Shown piece after piece: positions 8,031-33,312 of a DNA stretch of 64,000 bases. The position numbers and the translations under genes were made by a program. The stretch is from Nitrospirota bacterium. GTDB lineage: Bacteria > Nitrospirota > Nitrospiria > JACQBW01. The notes below the pieces were generated by a model. It made no database searches, was not told the DNA's origin, and saw only the letters and a list, made by a program, of their open reading frames with translations. How positions within the stretch are numbered: position 1 is the stretch's first letter; each line of letters begins with the position of its first letter. The stretch covers positions 34,442-98,441 of the forward strand of contig JACOTA010000018.1 in the NCBI GenBank assembly GCA_016178585.1, in the 5' to 3' direction.

Positions 8031-8143
8031 TGTCATTGCGAGGAGGATTTTTCGACGAAGTGCTGTCATTGCGAGCAAAGCGAAGCAATCTATTTTCCAT
8101 ACGGGTGTTATGAGATTGCTTCGCTGGCGCTCGCAATGACAGG
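8031..8143. mobile_element. MITE family A locus (partial left arm + complete element)
   Basis: TGTCATTGCGAGGAGGATTTTTCGACGAAG then TGTCATTGCGAGCAAAGCGAAGCAATCT...AGATTGCTTCGCTGGCGCTCGCAATGACA. Confidence 0.8.
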
Positions 8144-8725: not shown

Positions 8726-9319
8726 ATGACATATAATCCAGATATCCACAAACGCCATTCCTTAAGGTTAAAGGGATTTGATTATGCTCAAACGGGCGCT
8801 TATTTCATTACAATATGCACCCAAAATCGGGAATGTTTGTTTGGTAAGGTGGTAAATGATCAAAGACACCTTAATGATGCGGGAGAAATGATTCTGACTT
8901 CCTGGAACGAATTGCCACGGCATTATCCGGGGGTTGATGTTGACCAATTTGTGGTAATGCCCAATCACGTTCATGGCATTATTATTTTAACTGTAGGGGC
9001 AGGTCCCCGTGCCTGCCCTGAATTGCATATTAAAAAAAGGCAACCAGAGGAAATTTCTCCTGCATTATCCTTGTTATCTTTGTCGGATATAATACAACGG
9101 TTTAAATCATTGACAACGACTCATTATCTCCAGGGTGTCATACAAACCGGCTGGCCCCCTTTTCATAAAAAATTATGGCAACGAAATTACTATGAACATG
9201 TTATCCGAAATGAAGAGAGTTTAAATCGCATCCGGCAATATATCCATGATAATCCTTTAAATTGGAATATAGATGAAGAAAATCCGGAAGGGCAGGCACG
9301 GGGACCTGCCCCTACATAA
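8726..9319 (+). CDS. REP-associated tyrosine transposase (RAYT; IS200/Y1 HuH family, COG1943) carrying an in-frame internal REP and a REP-derived C-terminus
   Basis: N-terminal ...YFITICTQNRECLFG...; HuH motif VMPNHVHGIII; C-terminal helix LSDIIQRFKS...LWQRNYYEHVIRNEESLNRIRQYIHDNPLNW with catalytic Tyr; REP copies at 8993-9020 (translated TVGAGPRACPE) and 9290-9316 (translated EGQARGPAPT-stop). Confidence 0.8.
   Translation: MTYNPDIHKRHSLRLKGFDYAQTGAYFITICTQNRECLFGKVVNDQRHLNDAGEMILTSWNELPRHYPGVDVDQFVVMPNHVHGIIILTVGAGPRACPELHIKKRQPEEISPALSLLSLSDIIQRFKSLTTTHYLQGVIQTGWPPFHKKLWQRNYYEHVIRNEESLNRIRQYIHDNPLNWNIDEENPEGQARGPAPT
8993..9020 (+). repeat. REP element inside the RAYT ORF
   Basis: Same 27-mer as 8684. 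Confidence 0.85.
9290..9316 (-). repeat. REP element (inverse orientation) forming the 3' end of the RAYT ORF
   Basis: GGGCAGGCACGGGGACCTGCCCCTACA. Confidence 0.85.
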
Positions 9320-11541: not shown

Positions 11542-13044
11542 TTGAAAATCAGGTTAACTTTAACGTCAAAATTAGTTCTCATCATGCTGTTTTTATCCTT
11601 TTTATCGCTGGGAGCGTCGTTTTATCTTTATGCCCGCACGGAACAGGCGCTGGTAAAAGAAATGGAAGATCATATCAACGAGTTGTCAAACGCCATTTCA
11701 GTGAGCGTGGAAGAACTGACCAGCCCGGAACGGACGACGGAGAAGCGGCTGCAGGATTACGTCAAGCGGCTCGAAAAAAGGGGTGTAAAGGAAATATCGA
11801 TTGTCAGCAACGAAAAAGAGGTCATTGCCAGTTCAAATCCAAAACGGGTGGGGGCAAAAATTGATCCCAAACGAAAGGATTTGTTGATTACCGCGAAACT
11901 GGGAGATCAGCTTCCTTCTCCCACTCAGAAGGCCTATAATCTTCTTGTCCCGATCGTGGTTGAAGGCGAACAGCTGGGGTACGCTCATATCAGCATGGTT
12001 TTTGACGATTATGAAAAGCTGATTGAATCCCACTATTTGGACCGTCTGGTGGCAACCCTGATCGTCTTTTCAGTCGGGATCATGGTTTCGATTTTTCTCT
12101 CGTGGCGCTACACCCGGCCTATTTATCAAATCATGGGAGCCGCGAAAAAAGTCGCCAGGGGCGATTTAAGCCAGACGATCCCTGTCAGAAAAGGGGATGA
12201 CGAAATCAACCAGTTAACGCACAGTTTTAACGAAATGATTGAAAAATTACGGCAGAACAGGGTCCTCGAAGAGAGGCTTCGTGAAACCGAACATTTGACG
12301 GCGCTGGGGCAATTCGCATCGGGGATCGCGCATGAGATTCGGAATCCGCTTAACTTTATTTCCCTGAGTATTGATCATCTCAAAGAAAAAATCGGTCATG
12401 CCTCTCCGGAAGAACAAAAAAAAATGGGCGACCTGATGACCAGCATCAAATCCGAAACCTTTCGTCTCAACCATATGGTCGAAAACTTTTTAAAATACGG
12501 CCGTCCATTAAAACTCGATATCAAACAGGTGAATCTGAACCTTTTGTTGAAAGAGGTGCTCAATTTAGCCAATCAAAAAGCGATTGAACAGGGAATCGAG
12601 ATCAGCTATGTTCCGGAGGACACCCCTTTGATTGACGGTGATGAAGAAAAAATTAAAACCTGCCTGATGAACGTCGTCGCGAATGGCCTTCAGGCAATGC
12701 CAACAGGTGGAACCCTGTCGATACGAATGACCGAACGACCTGAAGAGGTGATCCTCGAAATTACCGATACCGGTCAGGGGATTAGCCCGGAGAATTTAAA
12801 GAAAGTTTTCCAGCCCTATTTTACCACCAAACAACTTGGAATCGGCCTCGGGCTGGCCCTCACCAGACGCATTATTGAAGAACACCACGGCACAATAGAG
12901 ATCAGCTCAAGCCCTGAAAAAGGCACAAAAGTTTTAATGACGTTGCCATTGAATTACGAGATGGTTCCTGAAGCGGGAAGCGAGGAACTGGCTTGGCCAG
13001 GCCGAGCGAGGGGTTCGGGGGCATCGGAGGATTTTACGAAGTGA
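11542..13044 (+). CDS. Sensor histidine kinase (two TM helices flanking a periplasmic domain, HAMP, HisKA, HATPase_c)
   Basis: TM1 LVLIMLFLSFLSLG, TM2 LIVFSVGIMVSIFL; H-box SGIAHEIRNPLNFI; N/G-boxes NVVANGLQAM...DTGQGI...GLGL. Confidence 0.85.
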   Translation: MKIRLTLTSKLVLIMLFLSFLSLGASFYLYARTEQALVKEMEDHINELSNAISVSVEELTSPERTTEKRLQDYVKRLEKRGVKEISIVSNEKEVIASSNPKRVGAKIDPKRKDLLITAKLGDQLPSPTQKAYNLLVPIVVEGEQLGYAHISMVFDDYEKLIESHYLDRLVATLIVFSVGIMVSIFLSWRYTRPIYQIMGAAKKVARGDLSQTIPVRKGDDEINQLTHSFNEMIEKLRQNRVLEERLRETEHLTALGQFASGIAHEIRNPLNFISLSIDHLKEKIGHASPEEQKKMGDLMTSIKSETFRLNHMVENFLKYGRPLKLDIKQVNLNLLLKEVLNLANQKAIEQGIEISYVPEDTPLIDGDEEKIKTCLMNVVANGLQAMPTGGTLSIRMTERPEEVILEITDTGQGISPENLKKVFQPYFTTKQLGIGLGLALTRRIIEEHHGTIEISSSPEKGTKVLMTLPLNYEMVPEAGSEELAWPGRARGSGASEDFTK

Positions 13045-13067: not shown

Positions 13068-14450
13068 ATGGCGAAAGGTGAGACGATTCTGGTCATCGAC
13101 GATGAAAAGCCTCAACGGGATATCCTGAAAATTATCCTGGAACAGGAAGGGTATAAGGTCGAGACGGCATCACACAGCCAGGAGGGTTTAAGAATTTATA
13201 AGAACGGAGAGGCCGATCTTGTTTTGACCGATTTAAAATTGCCCGATACGACGGAGTTAAGCGGCGTCGATGCTCTGTTCCGGATGAATCCGAATGCCTC
13301 CGTCATCATCATGACCGCGCACGGGACGATTGATTCCGCCGTAGAAGCGATGAAAAAAGGGGCGTTTGACTATCTGACTAAACCGCTCGATAAGACGGAG
13401 CTTCTCATTTCCATTCAAAGGGCGTTTGAGCGGATCCGTTTGTTAAGGGAAAACAAAAACCTCCGCCAGCAGTTGGGAGAAAAGTTTACGCTCCAGAATA
13501 TCATCGGAACGCACCCCGCCATGCAGGAGATATTCAAGATCGTTCAAAAGATCGCGGCCAGCAGCAGCACGATATTAATTTATGGGGAAAGCGGCACAGG
13601 CAAGGAATTGATCGCGAGGGCCATCCATTTTAACAGTACCCGGAAAAACGGGCCGTTCCGGGCCATTAATTGCGCGGCGATTCCCGAAAGCTTGATTGAA
13701 AATGAGCTGTTCGGCCACGAAAAGGGCTCTTTTACCGGCGCGGTCGGAAAAGAGATTGGTCTTTTTGAAGCGGCCGGCAAAGGGACCCTTTTCCTCGATG
13801 AAATCGGAGATTTGGGCCATCCGATCCAGGCCAAACTGCTTCGAGCTTTGCAGGAAAAGGAGATTAAGCGGATCGGTGGAAAAGAGGATGTCAAAATCGA
13901 TGTTCGCGTGATTGCCGCGACCAACAAGAATCTCCCCCAGGAAATTAAAAAAGGGGCCTTCCGGGAGGATCTTTTTTACCGGCTCAATATTATTTCGATC
14001 CATCTGCCCCCCTTAAGAGAGCGGGGTTCGGATATTCCAAAACTGGTCGAACATTTCCTCAAAAAGTTCAACAAGCAGACGGGAAAGAATATTAAAAGCC
14101 TCTCGAAGGAAGCGTTTCAAACGCTCCTGAATTATTCATGGCCCGGAAATGTAAGACAGCTGGAGGGTGTCATGGAAAGAACCATTCTCTTATGTGATTC
14201 GGAAGTCATCGGGCTCGAAGACCTTCCCCTTGAAATCAGAAGGGCCGGCCATCCCTTAAGTGAAATTGATTTTGATCTTCCTCCGGAAGGGTTTTCAATG
14301 GAAGCGTTTGAAAAACAGCTCCTGATTAAAGCGATGGAGAAAAGTGACTGGGTTATCGCGAAAGCCGCAAAAATGCTCGGACTTTCGTATAAGACCCTGC
14401 AGTACCGGCTGGACAAGTTCGATCTTAAGAAAAACGGTCGTGAGGAGTGA
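13068..14450 (+). CDS. Sigma-54-dependent response regulator (REC + AAA+ sigma54-interaction + Fis-type HTH; NtrC/ZraR/AtoC class)
   Basis: REC: ILVIDDE...DLVLTDLKLP; Walker A GESGTGKE, GAFTGA motif (SFTGA), ELFGHEKGSFTGA; C-terminal HTH AAKMLGLSYKTLQYRL. Confidence 0.9.
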   Translation: MAKGETILVIDDEKPQRDILKIILEQEGYKVETASHSQEGLRIYKNGEADLVLTDLKLPDTTELSGVDALFRMNPNASVIIMTAHGTIDSAVEAMKKGAFDYLTKPLDKTELLISIQRAFERIRLLRENKNLRQQLGEKFTLQNIIGTHPAMQEIFKIVQKIAASSSTILIYGESGTGKELIARAIHFNSTRKNGPFRAINCAAIPESLIENELFGHEKGSFTGAVGKEIGLFEAAGKGTLFLDEIGDLGHPIQAKLLRALQEKEIKRIGGKEDVKIDVRVIAATNKNLPQEIKKGAFREDLFYRLNIISIHLPPLRERGSDIPKLVEHFLKKFNKQTGKNIKSLSKEAFQTLLNYSWPGNVRQLEGVMERTILLCDSEVIGLEDLPLEIRRAGHPLSEIDFDLPPEGFSMEAFEKQLLIKAMEKSDWVIAKAAKMLGLSYKTLQYRLDKFDLKKNGREE

Positions 14451-14451
14451 C

Positions 14452-14578
14452 TCAAGAGAGATAGACGGCGCATTCATTTATTGATCATGTCATTGCGAGC
14501 ACCGAAGGGTGCGTGGCAATCTTACCGTAAAGTTTTGAGATTGCTTCACTTTGTTCGCAATGACAACTTTCTATCTCT
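14452..14578. mobile_element. MITE (variant with GCACCGAAGGGTGCGTGGCAATCTTACCG core), degenerate left TIR, right TIR CTATCTCTTGGG
   Basis: Near-identical to the copies at 33113 and (inverse) 19145/54107. Confidence 0.8.
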
Positions 14579-14729
14579 TGGGTGTGATTCCTTACAATTT
14601 TTTAAACATACCTTATTTAGGGTATAAACTACCTTATAACAGGTGTTCATAAGGACATGGCTAAGGGTTTTATTTTTATAACTATTTGAAAAATATAATA
14701 AAATTATTTTTACGATCTATTTTTTTTAA

Positions 14730-14745
14730 TGGTATTATTATTGCA
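14730..14745 (+). promoter_or_regulatory. Sigma-54 (-24/-12) promoter TGGTATTATTATTGCA, upstream of the 14801 gene
   Basis: GG at 14731-32 and GC at 14743-44 with exact 10-nt spacing (consensus TGGCAC-N5-TTGCA); AT-rich context; CCTTAT / CCTTAT / ATAAGG half-sites at 14611, 14632, 14649, about 80-120 bp upstream. Confidence 0.6.
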
Positions 14746-14800: not shown

Positions 14801-15031
14801 ATGAAAAAAATCTACTCTTTGGTTATTGCCATGATGATGTTGGTTGCTTTCGGTACAGTGACCTTTGCCGCTGACGCCGCTGCTCCAGCTGCTCCGGCCG
14901 CATCAGAAACTCCTAAGGCTGAAGCTTCTTCAAAAACTGTAAAGAAAATGAAGAAGAAAAAAGCCCAAAAAAAAGCTAAAAAAGAAGAAAAGAAAGAAGA
15001 AATGAAAGAAGCTGCGCCAGCGGCGAAATAG
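14801..15031 (+). CDS. Small secreted protein (76 aa): signal peptide + Ala/Pro linker + highly lysine-rich C-terminal tail
   Basis: Strong RBS GGAAGGGGGTGAAAATAAATG; signal peptide MKKIYSLVIAMMMLVAFGTVTFA; tail KKMKKKKAQKKAKKEEKKEEMKE; sigma54 promoter upstream; terminator downstream. Confidence 0.55.
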   Translation: MKKIYSLVIAMMMLVAFGTVTFAADAAAPAAPAASETPKAEASSKTVKKMKKKKAQKKAKKEEKKEEMKEAAPAAK

Positions 15032-15039
15032 TTTTTTTG

Positions 15040-15133
15040 ACGGACTTTGGAATGGTCGTCCTTAGACCGTGACGGACTTTGGAATGGTCGTCCTTAGACC
15101 GTGACGGACTTTGGAATGGTCGTCCTTAGACCG
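15040..15133 (+). repeat. Three tandem direct copies of a 32-bp unit GACGGACTTTGGAATGGTCGTCCTTAGACCGT
   Basis: Read directly; copies abut with no spacers. Confidence 0.9.
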
Positions 15134-15160
15134 GAATGATCAAAATACAGCTTACAGCAA

Positions 15161-15193
15161 AAAAGCACGGTATCTTTACCGTGCTTTTTTTTT
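15161..15193 (+). terminator. Rho-independent terminator (GCACGGTA-TCTTT-ACCGTGC + T9)
   Basis: Perfect 8-bp stem followed by a T-run. Confidence 0.8.
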
Positions 15194-15243
15194 GACGTTG
15201 ATAAATAAATTTCTTTATGACAAAATCTAAAATAAATTATTTT

Positions 15244-15285
15244 ATGGTCTCGTAAAAAGTCGTCATTCCCGCGAAAGCGGGAATC
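15244..15285. repeat. Small repeat family D (ATGGTCTCGTAAAAAGTCGTCATTCCCGC-GAAA-GCGGGAAT hairpin)
   Basis: Second copy at 58321-58390. Confidence 0.7.
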
Positions 15286-15307
15286 TATAGCAAACGTAAT
15301 AAGTAAT

Positions 15308-15394
15308 GTGTCATTGCGAGGAGCGGAGCGACGAAGCAATCCCTTTTTTATGTCAGCTAAGCAACGAGATTGCTTCACTTCGTTCGCAATGACG
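15308..15394. mobile_element. MITE family A element
   Basis: TGTCATTGCGAGGAGCGGAGCGACGAAGCAATCC ... GAGATTGCTTCACTTCGTTCGCAATGACGA. Confidence 0.8.
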
Positions 15395-15426
15395 ACCTTT
15401 AACATGATAAGCTGTCCCTTTTTTCG

Positions 15427-15488
15427 GTCTAACTACGACCATTCCAAAGTCCGTCACGGTCTAAGGACGACCATTCCAAAGTCCGTCA
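15427..15488 (-). repeat. Two inverted copies (one degenerate) of the 32-bp unit found at 15040-15133
   Basis: ACGGTCTAAGGACGACCATTCCAAAGTCCGTC is the reverse complement of the unit. Confidence 0.85.
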
Positions 15489-15546
15489 CAGACTTTTTAA
15501 GAGACCATCATTTAAGAATCGAATATAAATAAGAAAGGTCATTTAA

Positions 15547-15876
15547 ATGAGAAAATCATCGTTCTTTTTAGTTTTATTGTTAGTCGTATTTCTTCCCTTA
15601 ATATCGGGTTGTGAATCGAAAAAGTTAAAAGAAGAAAATACAAAGCTCAAACAGCAGTTTGAAAAAATGACCGAAGAAAACAAGTCGCTTCTCAATGAAG
15701 TGGATCAATTTAAAAAAGAAAACGAACAAATCAAGGAGAAAACCGCTTCTCTTCAGAATGAAAATAGTTCTCTTAAAAAGCAGATTGAATCTCTTAAGAA
15801 AAAACCTGTAAAAAAACCGGTAAAAAAGGCGCCGGCAAAGAAGAAGAAAACAAAAAAAGGAAAACACCCGGCTTAG
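15547..15876 (+). CDS. Coiled-coil lipoprotein (109 aa) with a Lys/Pro-rich C-terminal tail
   Basis: Lipobox LPLISGCES; heptad-like KLKQQFEKMTEENKSLLNEVDQFKKENEQIKEK; tail KKKPVKKPVKKAPAKKKKTKKGK. Confidence 0.55.
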   Translation: MRKSSFFLVLLLVVFLPLISGCESKKLKEENTKLKQQFEKMTEENKSLLNEVDQFKKENEQIKEKTASLQNENSSLKKQIESLKKKPVKKPVKKAPAKKKKTKKGKHPA

Positions 15877-15886
15877 GACCCTGCGC

Positions 15887-16753
15887 GTGATTAACCTTTT
15901 TCTTTCACTCATCCTGTTTTCAGCCGTTTCCTCTGGAGCTTTTTTTTTCTGCATTAAAGCTCTCCCTTTTTATCAAAAATACCGAATGAAAGTTATAACC
16001 GAAACGGTTTCTTCTCTAGATGAACAGTTTTTGTTTCTTACCGAAAGTCAGGCGGCGGTTATTTATACCCTTTCTACCATTGGGTTTCTTTTTTTAGGTT
16101 TTTTTTTGGGAGTGAGTCTTTCATGGAGAGCCGGATTACTGGGCGCCCTCTTTTTTGGGATAGGGGGCTATCACCTGCCTAAAAAAGTCATTCGCGCTAT
16201 TTCCCAAAAAAGATTAAAGGAAATAGAACGGCAAATTCCAGATTTTCTTAAAATGATTTTGGGTGCGCTTCGCGCCGGGTTAAGCGTATCGGAGGCGATG
16301 AAAAAGGCTGTGCAGGAGATTCCGCCGCCTCTTTCGCAGGAGCTTGGTCTGGTATTAAAGAAAATTAAAATGGGAGAGAGTTTTGAAGAGAGTTTTAAAT
16401 ATTTGGACCGCCGGCTGAATTTGGAAGAGATCAGCCTGGTGGTGTCAGCTATTATTCTTTCAAATGAAGCGGGAGGATCATTAACCTCTGTTTTGGAACG
16501 GTTGGAGCGGACTATCGAGGAAAGAAAACGGTTAAAAGGAAAAATTGACGCCTTGACCGCGCAGGGGAAAATGCAGGGGTGGGTGGTCGGATGTCTCCCG
16601 TTTTTGTTAGGGGTTGTCCTGTTTCTCATTGACCCCGGGCTAATGACCCCCTTTTGGACCAGCCTGTCCGGAGGGATCGGACTTTTTGCGATTCTTCTGC
16701 TGGAAATGTCCGGATTTTTCCTGATAAAAAGAATTGTTCAGGGGGAGGCTTAA
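15887..16753 (+). CDS. tadB: Tad/Flp-pilus-type secretion platform protein TadB (T2SS-F domain)
   Basis: LRAGLSVSEAM...GGSLTSVLERLERTIEERKRLKGKIDALTAQGKMQGWVVGCLP; three or more TM segments. Confidence 0.7.
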   Translation: MINLFLSLILFSAVSSGAFFFCIKALPFYQKYRMKVITETVSSLDEQFLFLTESQAAVIYTLSTIGFLFLGFFLGVSLSWRAGLLGALFFGIGGYHLPKKVIRAISQKRLKEIERQIPDFLKMILGALRAGLSVSEAMKKAVQEIPPPLSQELGLVLKKIKMGESFEESFKYLDRRLNLEEISLVVSAIILSNEAGGSLTSVLERLERTIEERKRLKGKIDALTAQGKMQGWVVGCLPFLLGVVLFLIDPGLMTPFWTSLSGGIGLFAILLLEMSGFFLIKRIVQGEA

Positions 16754-16756
16754 ATC

Positions 16757-17590
16757 GTGTTGCCCCTTCTCCTTGATTTTTTAATTTTTATCTCCGTCGC
16801 CTGGCTGACCAATCATTTGTTTCAAGCTCAATTCAAATTTAACCTGGAGCGGATTAAAACATCCCGATTTTATTCATGGGATCCTTTTCCTCAAGTCACC
16901 CCTTATCTCGCCTATCTCCGGCGAAAGATGACGACCGCCCGATGGCGATTTGAGCCGCGGGAGTTTATATGGATTCAAGTCATCAGCGGGACTGGATTGA
17001 TAATGGCGGGAAATTTAAGCCTGGTTCTTTTATCCGGGAGCTGGCCTGATTGGAGCGGGGTTTTGTTTTACGTTTTAATCTTTTTTGGTCTGGGATTCAT
17101 TTTTCCTGTTGTGAAGTTAAACACCGCCGTTCGGTCCCGGCAAAAAAACATGGTCAGGGATTTTTCCTTTTATCTCGATTTGATGGTGCTGGGGGTGGAA
17201 GCAGGGCTCGATTATTCAGCTGTTTTACAGAAAATTCTTCAAAACTCAAAACAAGGCCCTTTAAAGGAAGAGTTGGAAACGATGCTTCAACAGGTTCAGA
17301 TGGGTAAAAGCCGTTCTGAAGCGTGGAGGGAATTTTCCGGCCGAATCGACCTTCCGGAGATTCATTCGGTGATCCTGGCATTTATTCAAACCGATCAAAC
17401 CGGAAGCCCGTTGACCAAAACCCTCCGTCAATTGTCGGATGAAATGAAAACCACCCGGTTTCAACTGGCTGAAAAACGGGCCTACCAGATGCCGGTGAAA
17501 ATGTTAATCCCTCTTCTCGGTTGTATCTTTCCCGCGGTTTTTATCCTCCTGTTTGAACCGTTGGTCTTGCGCTTTCTGCGGCTCTTGTAA
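16757..17590 (+). CDS. tadC: Tad/Flp-pilus-type secretion platform protein TadC (T2SS-F domain)
   Basis: GLDYSAVLQKI...QTGSPLTKTLRQLSDEMKTTRFQLAEKRAYQMPVKMLIPL; follows tadB with a 4-nt gap. Confidence 0.7.
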   Translation: MLPLLLDFLIFISVAWLTNHLFQAQFKFNLERIKTSRFYSWDPFPQVTPYLAYLRRKMTTARWRFEPREFIWIQVISGTGLIMAGNLSLVLLSGSWPDWSGVLFYVLIFFGLGFIFPVVKLNTAVRSRQKNMVRDFSFYLDLMVLGVEAGLDYSAVLQKILQNSKQGPLKEELETMLQQVQMGKSRSEAWREFSGRIDLPEIHSVILAFIQTDQTGSPLTKTLRQLSDEMKTTRFQLAEKRAYQMPVKMLIPLLGCIFPAVFILLFEPLVLRFLRLL

Positions 17591-19041
17591 TGCAATATCT
17601 TCAGGTGGAAGAAATCGGAAGAGGGGGTATGGGCATTGTCTATAAAGCCTATTGCCCCGATCTGAAACGGTGCGTCGTTTTAAAGAAAGTCCACCCTGCC
17701 TTGGCCGTCGATCCGGCCTATCAAAGCCAGATCAAAAAAGAGGCTCAACTCCTCTCCCGGTTGAAACATCCCAATATTGTTTCGTATATCGGCTGCGATT
17801 TAATCGAATCCAATCATCAAAAAGAATTCTGCTTAATCATGGAGTATATCGAGGGGGTAAATTTAAAAGAGTGGTTAAAACTCAGGGGTTCGCTTCCTTT
17901 TGAAAAACTTGTTCCGATGTTTTTAGATTTGTGCGGGGCCCTGGCCTACCTTCACCAGAACCGGATTTTCCATTTTGATTTAAAGCCTGAAAATATCCTC
18001 ATGACGAAAGGGGAAAAGCTTTTTTTGACCGATTTCGGGATTTCGGCAATTGAGAGCGCAAACGGGAACACCGCGCCCCTGGGTGACCCGATCGGAAGCC
18101 TTGAATATAGCGCTCCGGAACAGTTGAAGGGAGAAAAGCCAGGCGGGAGGAGCGATCTTTATTCTCTGGGAATGGTTCTCTACGCGCTTTTAAACGGTAA
18201 GGGTTTTTTTGAAGGGGCTGAAAAACAGGTCATCTGGGGAAAGCTGGTTTATGAGGCCGCTCCTTTTAACTTAACCTTTCCTGAAGAGACGCCTGGTTTT
18301 TTTCAAAACATCATTCGAAAATTAGTCAATAAAGCCGCCGGCGACCGTTATCCGGATGTGAAAACCCTCCTGCTTGAATTTCACCGGCGCTTTTCGGCCC
18401 CCGAAGCTAAAGCTCCCCCTCGCCTTTCCGATTTAAAAGCAGATCTCCCCAACCGGAAAATTTCAGAAAAATGGGTGATTCTGGCAGCGGGTGCGGTCCT
18501 GGTGTTGATTCTTTACTTGAGCGCCGGTTTCGGGCCGGAATTAGTTTCTTCTCCCTCCGCCTTCCTTCCGCCCGCAGGAAATTCAAGCAACAATGAAACT
18601 CGCGTGGACAAGCCGGAGCCTCGGACATTAAACGAATCTGTAAGCCATAACCTCGATCCCGTCATTGAAATACCTCATCTGAAAAAAGAGAAAAAAAGGG
18701 TGGAGCCGCTGAGCAATAACGCCTCGTTACGGGTGCCTGATGATGATGAACTTGAGAGTTTTTTAAATCATTTTAAGTCAAACGCTGAAATCAAGAACCT
18801 CAAAACCCTTGAGGAAACCATTCAGTTTTCGCCGGACAAACTTTCCCATTTCCAAAAGATTTTTGAGACCAATCCAAAACTCGAGGTGGCGTTCCTGCAA
18901 ATCCAACGCGAAGGGCCGACGATTACCGTTCATTATCATCTTCTTTTAAACAAGGTGAGCGGGGAATTTCCGGTTAAATCCGCGGCCATTGAAAACGAGG
19001 AAATCCTTGTATTCCAGAATGGGACCTGGCAACTCAATTGA
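17590..19041 (+). CDS. Ser/Thr protein kinase (Hanks type) with one TM helix and a C-terminal extracytoplasmic domain of unknown function
   Basis: GRGGMGIVYKA...VLKKV; HFDLKPENILM; DFGIS; APE; TM WVILAAGAVLVLILYL; start overlaps the tadC stop (TAATG). Confidence 0.85.
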   Translation: MQYLQVEEIGRGGMGIVYKAYCPDLKRCVVLKKVHPALAVDPAYQSQIKKEAQLLSRLKHPNIVSYIGCDLIESNHQKEFCLIMEYIEGVNLKEWLKLRGSLPFEKLVPMFLDLCGALAYLHQNRIFHFDLKPENILMTKGEKLFLTDFGISAIESANGNTAPLGDPIGSLEYSAPEQLKGEKPGGRSDLYSLGMVLYALLNGKGFFEGAEKQVIWGKLVYEAAPFNLTFPEETPGFFQNIIRKLVNKAAGDRYPDVKTLLLEFHRRFSAPEAKAPPRLSDLKADLPNRKISEKWVILAAGAVLVLILYLSAGFGPELVSSPSAFLPPAGNSSNNETRVDKPEPRTLNESVSHNLDPVIEIPHLKKEKKRVEPLSNNASLRVPDDDELESFLNHFKSNAEIKNLKTLEETIQFSPDKLSHFQKIFETNPKLEVAFLQIQREGPTITVHYHLLLNKVSGEFPVKSAAIENEEILVFQNGTWQLN

Positions 19042-19144
19042 TTGCAAAAAATTCTGATCATCAATGCAAACGCAGACCCCTTTTCTTTTTATTCTTCTCG
19101 CAGTGTTGTGCCAAAACGGCCAGGTCTTTACTTTTCATTCTTGA

Positions 19145-19284
19145 CCCAAGAACAGAGTTAGAAAGCTGTCATTGCGAACAAAGTGAAGCAATCTCAAGAC
19201 TTTACGATAAGATTGCCACGCACCCTTCGGTGCTCGCAATGACATGATTAATAAGTGGGTGCGAAGTCTATCGCTGATCTTGGG
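19145..19284. mobile_element. Complete MITE with 17-bp TIRs (CCCAAGAACAGAGTTAG ... CTATCGCTGATCTTGGG)
   Basis: Near-identical to 54107-54251. Confidence 0.85.
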
Positions 19285-19340
19285 CTTGACAATGACTTAG
19301 TATATTGAGTAAAATTACTTAATTTATTGAGTAAAATGTT

Positions 19341-20543
19341 ATGAAAGTTTTTAAACGCCGGGTTTACCAAACCCTTCTTTCCCGTCTTCAGGAGCCGCGC
19401 CGCTTCATTCAAATCCTGTCCGGCCCCCGGCAGACAGGGAAAACCATACTATCCCGTCAGGCGATGGAAGATCTGGCGATTTCCACACATTATGCATCGG
19501 CAGACGAGCCGACCCTGCGCGACCGGGCCTGGATCGAACAGCAATGGAATATCGGAAGATTACAGGCAAGAGAAGACCGAAAGCGCAAGGGCGCATTGAT
19601 CGTATTAGATGAGATTCAGAAGATCCCCGGCTGGTCCGGGTTGATCAAGCATTTGTGGGATCAGGATACAGCCAACAAGGTTTCTCTTAAGGTGGTTCTC
19701 CTCGGCTCCGCGCCATGGCTGATCCAAAGAGGTTTAACAGAGAGTCTGGCAGGACGTTTTGAGTTGATTCATGTGACCCACTGGTCTTTTTCGGAGATGC
19801 AAAAAGCCTTCGGGTGGAACATTGATCAATTTCTATTCTATGGGGGTTACCCCGGAGGAGTGGATTTGATAAAGGACCCCGAACGCTGGTCGCGCTATAT
19901 CGTGGATTCGCTCGTAGAAACGACCATTTCCCGGGATATTCTCCTCCTGACACGGGTTGACAAACCGGCTCTTTTTCGCCGTCTCTTTCAACTGGGGTGC
20001 GACTATTCCGGTCAAGTTCTCTCCTATCAAAAAATGATCGGGCAAATGCAGGATGCGGGAAACACGACCACGTTGGCCCATTACCTGGAACTCCTTTCAG
20101 GGGCCGGAATGTTAACCGGCCTCTCCAAGTTTGCAGGCCAGCGAGTTCGCCAACGAGGTTCTAGCCCAAAGCTTCTGGTCCTTGATACCGCTCTCCTGAC
20201 AGCCTCTTCTTCCTATACGCTTGTTCAGGCCAGGAAGGAGAGTGCCTTCTGGGGAAGAGTGGTGGAATCTGCGGTGGGGGCACATCTGGTGAATAGTGCA
20301 ATGGGAACAAAAGTCGAGGTATTCTATTGGCGAGAGCGGGGAAAGGAAGTGGATTTCATCCTCCGTTTAGGCAAGACCGTGGTGGCGATTGAAGTCAAAA
20401 GTGGCCTGAAAAAAGAGAGCCATCCCGGAATGGAATCTTTTTTACACCTTTTCAAACCGGCAAAAGCGCTTTTAGTTGGCGAACAGGGGATACCTCTTGA
20501 AGAATTCCTGTCAGCCCCCGCGGCTCATTGGGCCAGCCTGTAG
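19341..20543 (+). CDS. AAA+ ATPase of the COG1373 / DUF4143 family
   Basis: Walker A GPRQTGKT; Walker B LIVLDEIQ; C-terminal DUF4143-like region. Confidence 0.8.
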   Translation: MKVFKRRVYQTLLSRLQEPRRFIQILSGPRQTGKTILSRQAMEDLAISTHYASADEPTLRDRAWIEQQWNIGRLQAREDRKRKGALIVLDEIQKIPGWSGLIKHLWDQDTANKVSLKVVLLGSAPWLIQRGLTESLAGRFELIHVTHWSFSEMQKAFGWNIDQFLFYGGYPGGVDLIKDPERWSRYIVDSLVETTISRDILLLTRVDKPALFRRLFQLGCDYSGQVLSYQKMIGQMQDAGNTTTLAHYLELLSGAGMLTGLSKFAGQRVRQRGSSPKLLVLDTALLTASSSYTLVQARKESAFWGRVVESAVGAHLVNSAMGTKVEVFYWRERGKEVDFILRLGKTVVAIEVKSGLKKESHPGMESFLHLFKPAKALLVGEQGIPLEEFLSAPAAHWASL

Positions 20544-20638
20544 TGTTTTTCGTTTTTTAAAAATCCAATTCAACAAGACGGTTTTTTCTCTTGCATTCCG
20601 CTCTAACAAATTTATAGCAAATTTATATCAGTTCTTGA

Positions 20639-21460
20639 GTGCGGCCGGGCAAGGTCGCATCATCCAGCGGGTGAGAATCCCGTCCCGGAAGGCAGGCAAG
20701 CCACCGGGTAGCAAGTCCTTGGAGGGAGGAGGGTAACCTCTGACTTTAAGCGTAGGATAGCAAGCAAACAGGCCGGAGCCTCGAAAGTGACGCGATGGGA
20801 AGGACGACGCTGTTCAAGAAGCGGAAGTCAAAATGGATTTCTCTTCGTAACGGCCAAGAAGAGGCCACTTCCCCGGGGTCGGAGACCATGGCATGTTTGA
20901 CATCAGGATAAGGAAGCCACAAAGTGAACAGCGACATGAGGAGACACTCACCGTTCACAGAAGCGGGGAAGGGGTGGGAACGAAATTGTGTCGCATCGCG
21001 GAGAAAGCTCGAAGGGAACCGGCTTTTCGGTTCACCAGTTTATATCATCTGATGAACCGGGAATTATTACGGGAATGTTTTGAGGCGTTGCGAAAAGATG
21101 CGGCCTCAGGCATTGACGGGGTGACCAAGGAGCAGTACGGCTATAAACTGGAGGAACATCTGGAAGAGCTTGTAGAACGGCTCCACCGGATGGCTTACAG
21201 ACCGCAAGGGGTAAGAAGGGTCTATATCCCCAAGCCGGGAAGTCATAAACAACGGCCAATAGGGATACCCAGCCTTGAAGATAAACTGGTACAGGCGGGA
21301 CTGGTTTCAGCTTTTGCTCAAACGGTATCCTCATCCCCAACCTAGAATTCAGGTTAGGCTATTTTGACCTGCGAAGTGACATTTTGAGGAGCCGTGTGCG
21401 TTAATTGCGCAAGCACGGTTCTGTGAGGGGCCGGGGCCAACGGGTGTAGGGTTGAAATAC
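20639..21460 (+). mobile_element. Compact group II intron (about 0.8 kb) with internally deleted IEP: 5' GUGCG start, truncated RT ORF in domain IV, canonical domain V, short domain VI
   Basis: 5' GTGCGGCC at 20639; RT0-RT2 protein motifs; domain V 21388-21421 AGCCGTGTGCG-TTAATT-GCGCAAGCACGGTTC with AGC triad and 2-nt bulge. Confidence 0.65.
20893..21345 (+). pseudogene. Truncated group II intron-encoded reverse transcriptase (only RT0-RT2; RT3-7, X and En regions absent)
   Basis: FTSLYHLMNRELLRECFEALRKDAASGIDGVTKEQY...VRRVYIPKPGSHKQRPIGIPSLEDKLVQ; ORF stops 45 nt before domain V. Confidence 0.7.
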
Positions 21461-21509
21461 TGTGGCACCGCCGGGAAACCAGGCGGCAACGGAGAAGACG
21501 AATCTCAAC

Positions 21510-22472
21510 CTATAACACCTGAAGAAACCGGTCTACTCGACCTTTATACAACCTCATCAACTTTTGTAAAGACTGATCAGGATTTCTTCTTTCTGCCTGA
21601 CGTTGAAGGTGAGATACCCGTGAGGAAGAAATACCAAACATCTTCGCCACCTCCTTTAACCTTAAATTAACCACCTGTCTGAAGAGATACACCGTAGCAT
21701 GATACGCTTCCTGATGGTGACGTTTAAAAATATCCTTTTGACCAACCCCGTATACCTGACATATTTTGTTTAAAACTTCTTCTTTTTGGGGCCTCATGGG
21801 CTGACTCTGCTCTTTTGGTACCTCACTTAAGGAATAATGCTCAATCTGTTTTTCGCTTTCCTTTAAAAATTCTTCTTTCCCCAACCAGATTTGCCCCCGT
21901 AAATTCTCCCATGGAGAACTCATCCTTATTCCTTCTTTCACAAATCTCTGATAAGCCACTCTGGCTGATCCTTCTCCTCTTCCAAATTGACTCAATACCC
22001 ATTTTGTTTCTAACCATTCCGGTGGTTTTTCTAAACCCATTGTTGGAAGAAGACTGCTCCAGGGCCATTCTTCTATTTTCGCAACGATTCCCGCTCGAAT
22101 TGGATTGAGCACAATATACCGGCATAACTCAAGAAGATAGTTCTCTCGATCAACAATGATGCTTTTGTATCGCCCCTGGAATACATGCCCAACCATCCCA
22201 TGACGGCGGTTAAACGCTTGTGTGTAGACCCCATTGAGTCTGCGCATTCCATCCACTAAATTGCCTTCCGGAGTTTCAATCAGTATGTGATAATGATTGG
22301 TCATGAGGCAATAAGCATAGCACTTCCAGCCCTGTTGTTGAATCTCACGGCCCAGGAATTTTAAAAAAAACTCCCGATCTTGATCATCAAGATAGATGTC
22401 CTGCTGACGGTTCCCACGCGCAGTCAGATGATAGAGCGCTCCCGGATATTCTATGCGTAATGGTCTTGCCAT
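21510..22472 (-). CDS. IS200/Y1-type HuH transposase-like protein (COG1943, long form) with C-terminal DnaA-C-like HTH
   Basis: PGALYHLTARGN...CYAYCLMTNHYHILIE...GHVFQGRYKS; C-terminal QVYGVGQKDIFKRHHQEAYHATVYLFRQVVNLRLKEVAKMFGISSSRVSH. Confidence 0.8.
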   Translation of the reverse strand: MARPLRIEYPGALYHLTARGNRQQDIYLDDQDREFFLKFLGREIQQQGWKCYAYCLMTNHYHILIETPEGNLVDGMRRLNGVYTQAFNRRHGMVGHVFQGRYKSIIVDRENYLLELCRYIVLNPIRAGIVAKIEEWPWSSLLPTMGLEKPPEWLETKWVLSQFGRGEGSARVAYQRFVKEGIRMSSPWENLRGQIWLGKEEFLKESEKQIEHYSLSEVPKEQSQPMRPQKEEVLNKICQVYGVGQKDIFKRHHQEAYHATVYLFRQVVNLRLKEVAKMFGISSSRVSHLQRQAERRNPDQSLQKLMRLYKGRVDRFLQVL

Positions 22473-22670
22473 GAAGAGACTTTATATCACTAGAAGAGGA
22501 AAGTCAAGAACTGACCCTTTCTTTAGTTATCATGTAACTTATGATTAAGTAAGGAGAAATATATAAAGAAGGGGGTGACAAAAATTGACAATTGACACCC
22601 TTCGATAACTTCGCTAGGATCATCGAAATTTTTCATTCAATCCATTTTTAAACCATCACCTTAATTTTTA

Positions 22671-25358
22671 ATGATGTTGCGTTCTTTTTTTATTTTTCTA
22701 CCTCTGACTTTTTTATTATTGGCCGGATGCGCTAAAAACAACAGTAGCAGCGCACCTGATTTCTCTGTTCAAATACGGGGGAATGTGATTGACTCCCTCG
22801 TTCAGGGAGGGAATGTCACCGCTTACTCTTTTAATACAGGCCAAATAGGAGAGGTCCTGGGGTCAGCGCAAACCGACACTCAGGGGTTATACTCCTTAAC
22901 GATTAAAAGTTATTCCGGTCCGGTTTATCTTGAACTTCGGGGCGGAACTTACGTAGATGAAGCGACCGGAGCGGTCACTTCTTTGACCCGCGATCAGTTT
23001 CTTTCGGCCATTAAATATATTGAGGGGGGGAAAGATATCGGATCTTTGATGATTACCCCGCTCACCACAATCGCCGCGAAACTGGCCGGAGCCAGGATCA
23101 ATTCAGGGAAATCTATTTTTACCGCCATCGATGAAGCCAATAACGATGTCACCCATCTTTTCGGCATCAATATTTTGACAACCTACCCCCTTAATTTAAC
23201 CGGAGGGCTCACCTCTTTTTCTGATTCTGCCCATTATGGCTTAATTCTGGCAGGGTTATCTCAAATGGCCGCGCAAATTTCCGAGTTCAATGGCGTTCAG
23301 CCAGGGAATATCTACCCGTCGATTAAAGTTGCCGACGCGATGGCGATTGACGCTTCGGACGGTATCCTGGATGGAAAAGAAAATGGCCAGCAGATTTTTC
23401 TGGGGAGCTATCCGTTGGACTCTTACAGCTACCGGTCGAAATTGGGACAGGCCGCTATTCTCTTTTTATCAAACCCCAATAACCGTTCCGGATTAGGATG
23501 GAATGACGTGATTACCGCGTTAAATACGACCGCGTCGGTCACGAACATATTCCCGGCGGGTGATCTGCCGAAACCGGTCGATGAAACACCTCCAACGATT
23601 ACTCTTATCCCGCAGAACAACACAGCGGTCAATAAAACGGTTACAGTGACCGCCCATGCCGCCGACCTGTCAGGAATTGCGAGTTTAACGCTTACTCCGG
23701 GAATTTTGATCACCCCGCAATCTGAAGGCCAAAAGGGAGACATTTCAACCTATGTCTATATCTTTGACTCAACCAAGATTCCTGACGGAGACGTCACTTT
23801 CACCGCCACAGCGGCAGACCGGGCAGGGAATCAGGCACAGGCTTCAATGACGCTTCGGGTTTTTAACACTCCTCCAGTTTTAAATATGACCCTCCTGACA
23901 GGGAGCTGGGTGAATCAACCGATGTTCAATATCACCGGAACCGTGAAGGATAACTCCAATCTGGGAATGGCATCAGTCGTGGTGGGCCCCGTTACCGCGA
24001 CAGTGACCACCTCGACCCTCTCCGGTACGGCGCCGGCAACGTTTACCGCTTCTGTTCCCCTTATCCCCGGGAATAATCCGGTGGATATTGTCGCAACCGA
24101 TAAGTTAGGAAACACCACGACCATTAAAGGTTATACCCTGATCTTGGACAACACTCCGCCGACAGTATCAGTCAATCCAACTCTATATTTCGATGAAACT
24201 CAGATGACCTTTTCTTTTCAACCTCCGCAAATTAATTATTCTACAGCCGGCGCTATCCGAACAACGGTTGACGCCGCGAATGCCGTCATCAACAAAAATC
24301 AGGCACGGCTCTCCATTGGAACCGGAGGGATAAATACACTTAACTTAAATAGTATGAATCTTCCTTACTACAGTATCTCCGTCAACGATTCCGGATATCC
24401 CTCGACCCCTTTTAGCCAACTCCAGGTCTTTTATTCTTTCTCACAAAAGAAAACAAACGATTCGGCTTATGTCGTCATTAAAGATTTTTCACCGGCTGTT
24501 ATTGATTCTTCAAACACTGCCGGAAACGGCTATTTAATCCCGATTGCGGAAGAAACCCTTGATCCGATCCTGACTCAGACAGACCCTTCGACCTTAAACA
24601 GGATTCAGATTAAAGCCATTGATGGGGGAGGGAACGTCACCTATCAGGATTTAATCTTCTCAATTAATCTCTTTCCACCCCCGCTCTATCTGGCAGAAGA
24701 CCCTGCTTTTCCATCCGCCTCTGCGCAGGATAGGACATCGCTTTATTTTTATCACTTTGGTGTTCGATCTTCTCTTTATATCGCGGGGAATGTCAATGTC
24801 GGAAAAATCAACATTTCTAACTTCAGTCCGGTCAAGCTTTATCTCTCCACCTCTTTTACACAAAATACCAGTGCCTTGACTGTTGGGGTCAGCGCTATCG
24901 GAACCGGGTCTTTTAGTTGTTACCTTGGATGTTACAACATTCCGGTTAACAAATCTTACGTCTATCCTCATGCTTTAACTGTCAATAATCAGTTCTTATT
25001 CAACAGCCAGACGAATAATCCTCTTCCTCTTCAACCCAACGGATTTTACCAGATCAACCCCGGGGAAACGGTTTATTATTGGGTTCAATCGAGTTATTCG
25101 GGACCCCCTGTTTATAACGATATTCCACCTTATAATTATCCGCCGCTCAATACCTGTTACAGGACCGACACCTCTCTTAATTTCTCACATGGGGCTTTTT
25201 TAAGTATCTCTTCCATGCCGGCGCTTTTAAATAATGTCATGGGTAACAATAAAACGCTCTACAGTTTTATATTTAATCAATATCTATACTGGCCGGGGAA
25301 CCCTGATTTTTCTTCAATTCAAAACAACGGAACATACTTCACAAACTGTCTCCCTTAA
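22671..25358 (+). CDS. Large lipoprotein (895 aa) with Ig-like/Big-type beta-sandwich domains; function unknown
   Basis: Lipobox LLAGCAKNNSS; repeated TPPTIT/TPPTVS-led beta-sandwich segments; Thr/Ser/Asn-rich. Confidence 0.65.
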   Translation: MMLRSFFIFLPLTFLLLAGCAKNNSSSAPDFSVQIRGNVIDSLVQGGNVTAYSFNTGQIGEVLGSAQTDTQGLYSLTIKSYSGPVYLELRGGTYVDEATGAVTSLTRDQFLSAIKYIEGGKDIGSLMITPLTTIAAKLAGARINSGKSIFTAIDEANNDVTHLFGINILTTYPLNLTGGLTSFSDSAHYGLILAGLSQMAAQISEFNGVQPGNIYPSIKVADAMAIDASDGILDGKENGQQIFLGSYPLDSYSYRSKLGQAAILFLSNPNNRSGLGWNDVITALNTTASVTNIFPAGDLPKPVDETPPTITLIPQNNTAVNKTVTVTAHAADLSGIASLTLTPGILITPQSEGQKGDISTYVYIFDSTKIPDGDVTFTATAADRAGNQAQASMTLRVFNTPPVLNMTLLTGSWVNQPMFNITGTVKDNSNLGMASVVVGPVTATVTTSTLSGTAPATFTASVPLIPGNNPVDIVATDKLGNTTTIKGYTLILDNTPPTVSVNPTLYFDETQMTFSFQPPQINYSTAGAIRTTVDAANAVINKNQARLSIGTGGINTLNLNSMNLPYYSISVNDSGYPSTPFSQLQVFYSFSQKKTNDSAYVVIKDFSPAVIDSSNTAGNGYLIPIAEETLDPILTQTDPSTLNRIQIKAIDGGGNVTYQDLIFSINLFPPPLYLAEDPAFPSASAQDRTSLYFYHFGVRSSLYIAGNVNVGKINISNFSPVKLYLSTSFTQNTSALTVGVSAIGTGSFSCYLGCYNIPVNKSYVYPHALTVNNQFLFNSQTNNPLPLQPNGFYQINPGETVYYWVQSSYSGPPVYNDIPPYNYPPLNTCYRTDTSLNFSHGAFLSISSMPALLNNVMGNNKTLYSFIFNQYLYWPGNPDFSSIQNNGTYFTNCLP

Positions 25359-25373
25359 CCTTTAGGAACCTAT

Positions 25374-25961
25374 ATGCGAAAAGTAACGCTATTTTTATGC
25401 GGGTTTATTTCTGGGATCGTTTTTTTAGCCGGTTGCGGCAAAACCGATGTGGCTCAGAGTTTTGCCCAAGCGGTGATTAAAGCGATTGATGTTGTTTTCG
25501 ATAACCGGGGAACCCATCTCGCCTCAACAAACGTTCAAGACGTCCTGAATGAAATTAATACCAAACTCCCTAATTATGTAAAACCTGCTGATCTAAAAAA
25601 ACTCTTAGACACCAATGTCGTCTGGTATGGATCTATTCGGGATTTAACTGAAACAGGAACAGGAAGCATTCCCTTTTCCATTCAATTTTCAAACGCTACA
25701 GTCTCAAATGCAACTATCAATAATATCCTCTACGCTATGTCTTTAGATATCCCTGATGATGGAATTATCTCTTTCCTCGGTTCTGTCCCAAGTAGATTGG
25801 GAAGTTTAATTAATGTAAAACTCATTCAACGGAATGGAACAAATTACTTAACCGGCGTCACTCTTTTGAATAATACGACTCCCAATACAGCAGGTAATAT
25901 CAACCTCACCCACAACTATTTTGAATTGAAGCAATGCCCTCCAGGTCAAACGATCTGCTGA
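25374..25961 (+). CDS. Lipoprotein (195 aa), function unknown
   Basis: Lipobox FLAGCGKT; 15 nt downstream of the preceding gene; C-terminal CPPGQTIC. Confidence 0.55.
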   Translation: MRKVTLFLCGFISGIVFLAGCGKTDVAQSFAQAVIKAIDVVFDNRGTHLASTNVQDVLNEINTKLPNYVKPADLKKLLDTNVVWYGSIRDLTETGTGSIPFSIQFSNATVSNATINNILYAMSLDIPDDGIISFLGSVPSRLGSLINVKLIQRNGTNYLTGVTLLNNTTPNTAGNINLTHNYFELKQCPPGQTIC

Positions 25962-25984
25962 GTTCCCGTTGATTTTTCCCCACC

Positions 25985-26124
25985 CCCAAGAACAGCGATA
26001 GGATTTGTAACTCCTTGTTTTGCCTGTCATCGCGAGCGCCCGCAGGGTGCGTGGCGATCTCGGTTCACGATGGCGAGATTGCTTCGCTTCGCTCGCAATG
26101 ACAACTTTCTATCGCTGTTCTTGG
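25985..26124. mobile_element. Complete MITE with TIRs (CCCAAGAACAGCGATAG ... CTATCGCTGTTCTTGG), in the trpE leader
   Basis: Near-identical (about 95%) to 39935-40076. Confidence 0.85.
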
Positions 26125-33112: not shown

Positions 33113-33312
33113 CCCAAGACCAGCGATAGACTTCGCACTCACTTATTAATCATGTCATTGCGAGCACCGAACGGTGCGTGGCAATCTTATCGTAAAGTCT
33201 TGAGATTGCTTCACTTTGTTCGCAATGACAGCTTTCTAACTCTGTTCTTGGGTATCTCTCAAGAGAGATAAAAAGTGTCATTGCGAGCCGAAGGCGAAAC
33301 AGTCTCATAACA
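33113..33312. mobile_element. Complete MITE (TIRs CCCAAGACCAGCGATAG ... CTAACTCTGTTCTTGGG) abutting a 5' fragment of a second element
   Basis: The junction creates TATCTCTCAAGAGAGATA near-palindrome at 33252-33269. Confidence 0.8.

Follow-up and report, generated by a model that had tools for sequence, protein, structure and literature searches.

Work on Tad (type IVc) systems has indicated that they are almost exclusively encoded at a single locus and very rarely scattered (Denise et al. 2019, PMC6668835). In the Kil system of Myxococcus, experiments have established that the platform proteins KilG and KilH, which are encoded in cluster II, and the FHA-fused ATPase KilF, which is encoded in cluster I, form one machine (PMC8460266). 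The authors of that work, who called this split unique, noted an excess of FHA proteins and postulated an unidentified upstream phospho-cascade, like PpkA/Fha1 of type VI secretion, which they proposed triggers assembly on contact (PMC8460266). The locus considered here lies in a stretch of 64,000 nucleotides from a Nitrospirota bacterium (GenBank assembly GCA_016178585.1, contig JACOTA010000018.1, forward-strand positions 34,442 to 98,441), which is called the window throughout and whose first letter is position 1. Between 15547 and 19041 it carries, all on the plus strand, four genes in the order lipoprotein-tadB-tadC-kinase, the last of which encodes a receptor-like Ser/Thr kinase. With confidence that is evenly balanced, we read this cassette as the platform-plus-kinase part of a split, phospho-gated Tad-like machine. 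What is new is a Tad platform sub-cluster in which an in-operon receptor kinase stands in for FHA and a mini-lipoprotein for CpaB, and which is confined to a small Nitrospirota clade; a literature search found no description of kinase-coupled tadBC.

The four genes make up one operon. An open reading frame (ORF) check of the window found all five of the ORFs that had been proposed in an initial annotation, made from the sequence alone. The lipoprotein gene is separated from tadB by 10 nt, and the tadB stop codon (TAA, 16751-16753) is separated from the tadC start codon (GTG, 16757) by 3 nt; thus, the tight tadB-tadC linkage in the initial annotation stands, while its gap of 4 nt does not. The predicted coupling of tadC to the kinase gene is also seen in the sequence, where the tadC stop overlaps the kinase ATG by 1 nt within TAATG. 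Together with a promoter-like block and a terminator that lie upstream of the operon, these gaps and this overlap are co-transcription signals that tie the TadB/TadC pair to the lipoprotein and the receptor kinase. The promoter-like block (TTGATA-17-CAAAAT, similar to a sigma-70 promoter) is kept in the related loci L004, L005, L009, L170, and L010. Because L010 keeps it although the gene for a 76-residue protein, which precedes the operon in the window, does not stand upstream there, the cassette would have its own promoter, and we infer that the block acts as this promoter. An Rfam scan of 14.4-19.4 kb gave nothing credible.

The assignment of the central pair as TadB and TadC is borne out by full T2SSF domains and by a platform fold. 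In Pfam, the T2SSF family (PF00482, gathering cut-off 25.2) matches TadB with 75.4 bits (E 5e-21, profile positions 1-123 of 125) and TadC with 69.9 bits (E 3e-19, profile positions 2-123 of 125). An AlphaFold model of the 288-residue TadB, which was built on 13 clade sequences, has a mean predicted local distance difference test (pLDDT) score of 73.5; when this model was used in a fold search of the PDB, the top 11 matches were all cytoplasmic domains of platform proteins (EpsF, OutF, PilC, and TcpE), with target template-modelling (TM) scores of 0.70-0.77. A PDB search with TadB by sequence alone gave no match. Hydrophobic N- and C-terminal segments are present in both platform proteins, as judged by sequence and model, and an adjacent pair of 288 and 277 residues is what is expected of TadB and TadC (~280-320 residues each, with terminal transmembrane helices). 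To probe the core of the family, we took alignment columns with at least 90% conservation among relatives that belong to other phyla: the window TadB keeps the outgroup residue at 57 of 89 such columns and TadC at 55 of 96, and most of the changes are conservative. The core T2SSF residues, whose conservation the initial annotation had named as a check, are therefore retained. In both proteins, the cytoplasmic T2SSF domain is the best-conserved part. The public annotation of TadB (P0001, 255 residues), an identical protein in a 'Nitrospirae bacterium' metagenome-assembled genome, starts at an internal ATG that lies 33 codons downstream of GTG 15887; these 33 codons (15887-15985) encode a transmembrane helix that is kept in the clade alignment, and the deposited protein is probably truncated at its N-terminus. 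The choice of GTG 15887 as the tadB start in the initial annotation is supported by this clade-wide N-terminal conservation.

The cassette recurs in about eight distinct Nitrospirota loci (window/L001-3, L004, L005/L006, L009, L010/L089, L169, and L170/L171), whose TadB proteins are 51-82% identical; besides the window assembly, GCA_016194305.1, GCA_054638995.1, JBGPKT01, and DATNMI01 are among the assemblies with the cassette. Identity to the window TadB is 82% for L004, 67% for L009, ~61% for L169, 57% for L005/L006 and L170/L171, and 51% for L010/L089. The order lipoprotein-TadB-TadC-kinase is held in every recovered clade locus, which answers the question of gene-order conservation raised at the outset; in L005, one acyltransferase gene on the opposite strand is inserted before the kinase gene. 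The flanks of L010 are unrelated to those of the window, with an ABC/FtsX permease and a secreted protein upstream of the cassette, while the remaining loci share housekeeping synteny with the window (FG-GAP protein, spermidine-synthase-like, HAD, PrmA, PurE, and Sua5). This is a small clade: a collection of 5.8 billion proteins yielded ~14 protein clusters, a set of 185,579 species genomes two loci, and JGI metagenome contigs one. Ratios of nonsynonymous to synonymous substitution (dN/dS), which were taken from the closest pairs only, more divergent pairs being saturated (dS undefined), are 0.11 for TadB, 0.16 for TadC, 0.16 for the lipoprotein, and 0.36 for the kinase between the window and L004, at a dS of ~0.9. 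The cassette is kept by purifying selection and has been conserved over the long term. In the protein, genome, and metagenome collections, identity to TadB proteins outside the clade does not exceed 44%.

The 483-residue product of the fourth gene is a Hanks-type kinase (Pkinase E 1e-44, Pfam). Its N-terminal Hanks kinase domain is followed by a single transmembrane segment and then, after a low-complexity linker in the periplasm, by a conserved domain of ~95 residues at the C-terminus (residues ~385-483). In an alignment of full-length orthologues the motifs GRGGMG, VVLKK, HFDLKPEN, DFG, and SAPE are all visible; the kinase is of the non-RD type, with HFD in its catalytic loop and with DFG and APE present. 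In the L169 orthologue (L169:2069-3670), the catalytic loop reads DLNPGN rather than DLKPEN and the N-lobe carries an insertion of ~60 residues, an insertion that the L009 kinase also bears; from these residues, the kinase of the L169 lineage may be weakened or a pseudokinase. The C-terminal domain has no match in Pfam or NCBIfam, a homology search with the periplasmic region (residues 290-483) returned no matches, and a single-sequence AlphaFold model of the domain was unusable (pLDDT 48). PADLOC matches the kinase to PD-T4-6 and MADS kinases (E 1e-57 to 1e-61). These matches are confined to the generic kinase domain and were rejected as evidence of anti-phage defence; the conserved core-genome context with tadBC argues against such a role.

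The first gene of the operon encodes a lipoprotein of 109 residues with the lipobox LISGC, a coiled coil of ~60 residues, and a KKKPVKKPVKK... tail, as the initial annotation had described. Pfam and NCBIfam gave only sub-threshold coiled-coil noise. Wherever a clade locus extends to this position, the gene lies directly before tadB, and the lipoprotein, unlike the 76-residue protein, belongs to the cassette. Its slot is the CpaB/RcpC position in relatives; it has no similarity to RcpC.

No other Tad gene was found near the pair, either in the 15 kb upstream or in the 45 kb downstream, in agreement with the initial annotation. In particular, Pfam scans of every window ORF of at least 150 residues found no T2SSE/CpaF, secretin, A24 peptidase, RcpC, or ParA-like TadZ, and neither an Flp leader (G/XXXXEY) nor a type IV prepilin cleavage motif was found in the six frames of the 64 kb. 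A complete Tad/Flp (type IVc) system is consequently absent from the window and from the clade loci, which lack the ATPase, the pilin and peptidase, and the secretin, RcpC, and TadZ. For the clade loci, this covers fetched flanks of up to 10 kb on each side, with several contigs being much shorter.

The relatives of the pair indicate what such an absence may mean. The next-nearest TadB proteins, which are 30-44% identical, come from Myxococcota loci of the Kil-cluster-II type, from Burkholderiales, and from Auribacterota, and the ~150 nearest non-clade loci, ranked by sequence similarity, are all of the Kil/FHA type. They show two architectures. In the first, which is found in Pusillimonas and other Burkholderiales and in Auribacterota, a single, complete locus has the order RcpC-secretin-FHA::T2SSE ATPase-TadB-TadC, and one or two FHA proteins often come next; one Auribacterota locus, L044, reads secretin-FHA::ATPase-TadB-TadC-FHA-FHA/TPR-Ser/Thr kinase. 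In the second, which is found in Myxococcota and matches cluster II of Myxococcus xanthus kil, the order is RcpC/CpaB-TadB-TadC-FHA(-FHA) and the ATPase is not nearby. Where an ATPase does adjoin the TadB/TadC of a relative, it is an FHA::T2SSE fusion. Counts were made using ad-hoc hidden Markov models that were built from the recovered sequences. Among 109 non-clade loci that extend at least 1.5 kb past tadC, an FHA ORF immediately follows tadC in 96, and a kinase occupies that slot in none. Conversely, the clade loci that extend past tadC all have the kinase downstream, and an FHA gene in none. The T2SSE ATPase is wanting in 41 of the 47 relatives whose flanks reach at least 9 kb on the upstream and 8 kb on the downstream side. 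These gene neighbourhoods clearly show a TadBC subfamily with a habitual link to phospho-threonine signalling, whose genes often stand at a distance from that of the motor. The clade departs from the Kil/FHA type at both flanking slots, having the kinase rather than FHA after tadC and the lipoprotein rather than CpaB/KilB before tadB. Its TadB identity to the subgroups, 30-35%, is the same as that between the subgroups.

Taken together, these comparisons suggest that the operon would provide a Kil/FHA-type Tad-like (type IVc) platform together with a dedicated phospho-signalling input. The periplasmic C-terminal domain of the receptor kinase would detect an envelope or extracellular cue, and the kinase would then phosphorylate threonines of the platform or of a partner protein. 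An assembly ATPase that bears an FHA domain could thereby be recruited or activated, much as in PpkA-Fha1 of type VI secretion. This ATPase, along with the secretin, the pilins, and the peptidase, would come from genes outside this locus, in the manner of the two-cluster Kil system, and the coiled-coil lipoprotein in the CpaB/RcpC slot might be a periplasmic connector or anchor, although this last assignment is a guess.

Several points weigh against a split machine of this kind. The window and the fetched flanks of the clade loci contain neither an ATPase, a secretin, a pilin, or a peptidase nor CpaB or an FHA::ATPase. A search for FHA::CpaF with the closest outgroup ATPase (L057) gave at least 8000 matches in many phyla, none of which is attributable to the clade; the sole Nitrospira-named match among those listed comes from SG8_3, an unrelated metagenome-assembled genome. 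A split system would be an exception, given the single-locus rule of Denise et al. 2019 (PMC6668835). The counts of relatives are drawn mostly from Myxococcota, and hence are not phylogenetically independent. Only gene position suggests a signal from kinase to platform. Finally, in the window itself the putative promoter is parted from the operon by an insertion of 280 bp, which carries a REP-like element (15310-15393) and is not present in L004, L005, or L170 (upstream-region comparison).

The alternative that survives best is an autonomous module with no ATPase, in which TadB and TadC have been co-opted as a membrane scaffold or signalling partner of the kinase and the lipoprotein, perhaps for envelope sensing, and no filament is made. 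The lack of any further Tad gene, both in the window and in the clade flanks that were fetched, would be expected of such a module, as would flanking slots that both differ from those of relatives (lipoprotein for CpaB, kinase for FHA) and a clade that forms a deep, small, lineage-restricted branch. However, the cytoplasmic T2SSF domain, which in known systems (PilC/GspF) is the one that faces the ATPase, is precisely the best-conserved part of these proteins and keeps the core residues of the family. To our knowledge, no T2SSF protein has an ATPase-independent role. Furthermore, the nearest relatives of this TadBC are routinely encoded far from the ATPase and yet work with it, so that absence from the window is weak evidence for a system without one. 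We therefore regard the ATPase-less module as unlikely. If true, it would be far more surprising than a split machine: should the clade genomes truly lack an ATPase, the cassette would represent the first ATPase-independent use, and a new non-filament function, of T2SSF proteins.

A further explanation requires a description of the genes upstream of the operon. The NtrC-type regulator likely activates the gene of the 76-residue protein; its start at ATG 13068 is backed by orthologue lengths of 455-459 residues. The histidine kinase (11542-13044) adjoins in the window, L004, and L005, but not in L010, while the L009 contig holds only the response-regulator end; it is probably outside the Tad cassette. 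The prediction that the 76-residue gene is driven by sigma-54 has held up: the promoter element at 14730-14745 matches TGGYAY-N5-TTGCW as no other site in the 64 kb does (0.09 matches expected), and the element occurs as TGGCAY-N5-TTGCA in three orthologous loci (L004, L005, and L170), where it lies downstream of a conserved palindrome. We infer from the upstream alignment that the degenerate copy of this palindrome in the window (14632-14643) is a candidate activator-binding site. The 76-residue gene has a strong ribosome-binding site, its Sec signal peptide is near-invariant in three orthologues, and its dN/dS is 0.12-0.18 (0.18 for the window versus L004). The protein matches the NCBIfam Asr family (NF033636) with E 9e-7 and 29.7 bits, which is below the cut-off of 50. 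Asr of Enterobacteria is a repetitive, basic acid-shock protein that functions as a disordered periplasmic chaperone and is induced by a two-component system (PMC10746267). Like the 76-residue protein, it has a Sec signal and a disordered, basic chain rich in Ala, Pro, and Lys, and is two-component-driven; the window protein is shorter (the Asr profile has 119 positions) and sigma-54 dependent, and the likeness is mostly compositional. We conclude that the histidine kinase, the sigma-54 regulator, and the 76-residue protein form a separate, neighbouring regulon of the envelope-stress type.

The region between this regulon and the operon has features of its own. The stem of the intrinsic terminator is identical in the window, L004 (9534-9567), L005 (9547-9578), and L009 (1493-1526), loci whose proteins are 57-82% identical, a conservation that is unusually strong for a terminator; its symmetric A run and T run suggest that it may be bidirectional. 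(A simple terminator scan did not detect the hairpin at 15165-15193.) The 32-nt unit that is repeated in the 3' region of the 76-residue gene also occurs as two inverted copies (15425-15488) in the 280-bp leader insertion, and nowhere else in the 64 kb beyond 15038-15133 and those copies. Together, the copies form arms of 64-73 nt, 93-97% complementary, around the terminator and the promoter, and with such complementarity, base pairing between the 3' end of the 76-residue transcript and the operon's 5' leader is conceivable. L004 has two diverged direct copies at the same place and no inverted ones. Since the complementarity of the two untranslated regions is confined to this genome, it was rejected as a conserved regulatory feature.

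The initial annotation had suggested that the platform secretes or displays polycationic proteins, and one may thus consider export or display of both lysine-tailed proteins by TadB/TadC under the control of the kinase and sigma-54. The 76-residue gene, the lipoprotein gene, and tadBC are indeed adjacent in the window, L004, L005, L009, and L170, the lipoprotein gene is always immediately 5' of tadB, and polycationic tails and purifying selection are common to both small proteins. Nevertheless, this suggestion is not supported, and we consider it very improbable. Both proteins have ordinary Sec or lipoprotein signals, for which a dedicated exporter is not needed, and neither has a prepilin-type leader in the six-frame motif scan. 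The 76-residue gene is a separate unit with its own sigma-54 promoter and conserved terminator, and its product resembles, below the family cut-off, a periplasmic stress chaperone. In addition, the 76-residue gene, like the histidine kinase and the sigma-54 regulator, is missing beside the L010 cassette, and the four or five loci with the adjacency share unrelated housekeeping synteny, so that the adjacency of the two modules may simply have been inherited. The remaining idea, that the pair is a decaying remnant or a recent duplicate of a complete tad locus, which was also raised initially and would fit the local absence of other Tad genes and the REP-containing insertion in the operon leader of this genome, is effectively refuted by full-length, intact ORFs in all lineages under purifying selection (dN/dS ~0.1-0.16 at dS ~0.9), by retained core T2SSF residues, by a gene order that is kept down to 51% TadB identity, and by the absence of any other TadB above 44% identity.

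Coordinates of these features, and of others in the window, are collected in Table 1. About 16 intergenic palindromic elements of the REP/MITE-like kind, ~75-85 nt long and with inverted GTCATTGCGAG ends, are scattered through the window (34 matches versus 0.7 expected). Two IS200-like Y1 transposase genes lie on the minus strand at 8726-9319 and 21510-22472; presumably these may encode RAYT-type enzymes of the REP-like elements. A variable island of ~7 kb (19042-26000) lies between the kinase gene and trpE; in L004, trpE comes straight after the kinase gene, and the 19.1-26 kb of the window are therefore an insertion. The island encodes an AAA_14/DUF4143 ATPase with a full-length match to the PADLOC candidate defence family PDC-S01 (E 2e-174), a Y1 transposase-like gene, an 895-residue Big_13 protein, and a truncated ORF of 150 residues that resembles the N-terminus of a group II intron reverse transcriptase, with no Pfam match. 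A second phospho-threonine cluster, whose stop and start codons overlap, is present at 36320-39914. Among the loci that were fetched, its kinase domain (36751-38832) is most similar to that of the Ser/Thr kinase in the Auribacterota FHA-type Tad locus L044 (40%), and the 36.3-39.9 kb genes resemble Kil-type accessory genes only in their FHA and kinase domains. The region is flanked by genes for two very large secreted proteins with FG-GAP/CARDB/CarboxypepD_reg repeats, of 1321 and 905 residues, at 1529-5494 and 55479-58196 (minus strand); the former gene is syntenic in L004 and L005.

Table 1. Positions of the cassette genes, the upstream regulon, and other features of the 64,000-nt window (aa, amino acids).
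Feature	Position	Strand	Description
Sensor histidine kinase	11542-13044	+	HAMP-HisKA-HATPase (Pfam); NCBIfam best AtoS/ZraS-like, all below cut-off
NtrC-type sigma-54 regulator	13068-14450	+	REC-AAA+-HTH_8; Sigma54_activat E 2e-70
Degenerate copy of conserved palindrome	14632-14643		TCCTGATATCAGG in relatives; upstream-region alignment
Sigma-54 (-24/-12) promoter	14730-14745	+	TGGTAT-N5-TTGCA; 56 nt upstream of the 76-aa gene
76-aa secreted protein	14801-15031	+	Disordered, Lys/Ala/Pro-rich, Asr-like; separate transcription unit
Three perfect tandem 32-nt units	15038-15133	+	TGACGGACTTTGGAATGGTCGTCCTTAGACCG; 3' region of the 76-aa gene
Intrinsic terminator	15165-15193	+	GCACGGTA-TCTT-TACCGTGC, then T run; ends the 76-aa gene unit
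Putative sigma-70-like promoter	15198-15226	+	TTGATA-17-CAAAAT; lipoprotein-tadB-tadC-kinase operon
Lineage-specific insertion, operon leader	15237-15515		~280 bp, 25-nt inverted ends
Lipoprotein, cassette gene 1	15547-15876	+	109 aa, lipobox LISGC, coiled coil, polylysine tail
tadB	15887-16753	+	288 aa, one T2SSF domain, inner-membrane platform protein
tadC	16757-17590	+	277 aa, one T2SSF domain, inner-membrane platform protein
Receptor-like Ser/Thr kinase	17590-19041	+	483 aa; Pfam and orthologue alignment
REP/MITE-like elements, examples	1342-1426, 5517-5690, 8032-8140, 14489-14564, 15310-15393, 19168-19243, 33154-33287, 54132-54207		
Small FHA protein	36320-36751		
TPR-plus-kinase protein	36751-38832		
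361-aa protein	38829-39914		C-terminal FHA domain

FHA-type Tad machines are widespread across phyla, and the killing apparatus of Myxococcus is among them. A kinase that occupies the FHA slot, and whose start overlaps the tadC stop, would be a testable candidate for the 'writer' of the phospho-signal postulated for Kil and for its coupling to the platform. If read correctly, the cassette also marks a second and independent case of a lineage whose Tad platform genes are not linked to the motor, and it is one that automated system detectors would miss or call incomplete.

How the cassette relates to described systems can now be summarized. With the canonical Tad/Flp locus (flp-tadV-rcpCAB-tadZABCDEFG; cpa of Caulobacter) it shares two single-T2SSF proteins in the order tadB-tadC, whereas the cassette locus has no TadA/CpaF, TadZ/CpaE, Flp, TadV, RcpA, TadD, or TadE-G. 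The PpkA/PppA-Fha1 pathway of the Pseudomonas aeruginosa H1 type VI secretion system, as cited in the work on Kil, has a membrane receptor Ser/Thr kinase with a periplasmic sensor and an assembly step that is gated by FHA-phosphothreonine binding (cited in PMC8460266). It may serve only as a functional analogy; the machine is a different one, the kinase fold alone is in common, and the FHA partner is hypothetical in the present case. The single-locus FHA-type Tad systems have TadB/TadC of the same subfamily (at most 44% identity over the C-terminal two thirds) and built-in phospho-threonine readers, with a Ser/Thr kinase in the member L044; they are complete and contiguous, whereas the cassette locus has the platform pair only. 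Kil cluster II (KilB/CpaB-KilG-KilH plus FHA) is of the type to which the sequences nearest to this TadB/TadC outside the clade belong. Identity to it is 30-35%, and the cassette has a lipoprotein for KilB/CpaB and a receptor kinase for FHA. Unlike Kil, the cassette has no adjacent pilin or pseudopilin genes, and a peptidase, a secretin, and an FHA::ATPase partner cluster were not found in the window or the fetched flanks; its hosts, in contrast to Myxococcus, are not known predators. In both, however, the platform pair lies away from the ATPase and is tightly linked to phospho-threonine signalling parts.

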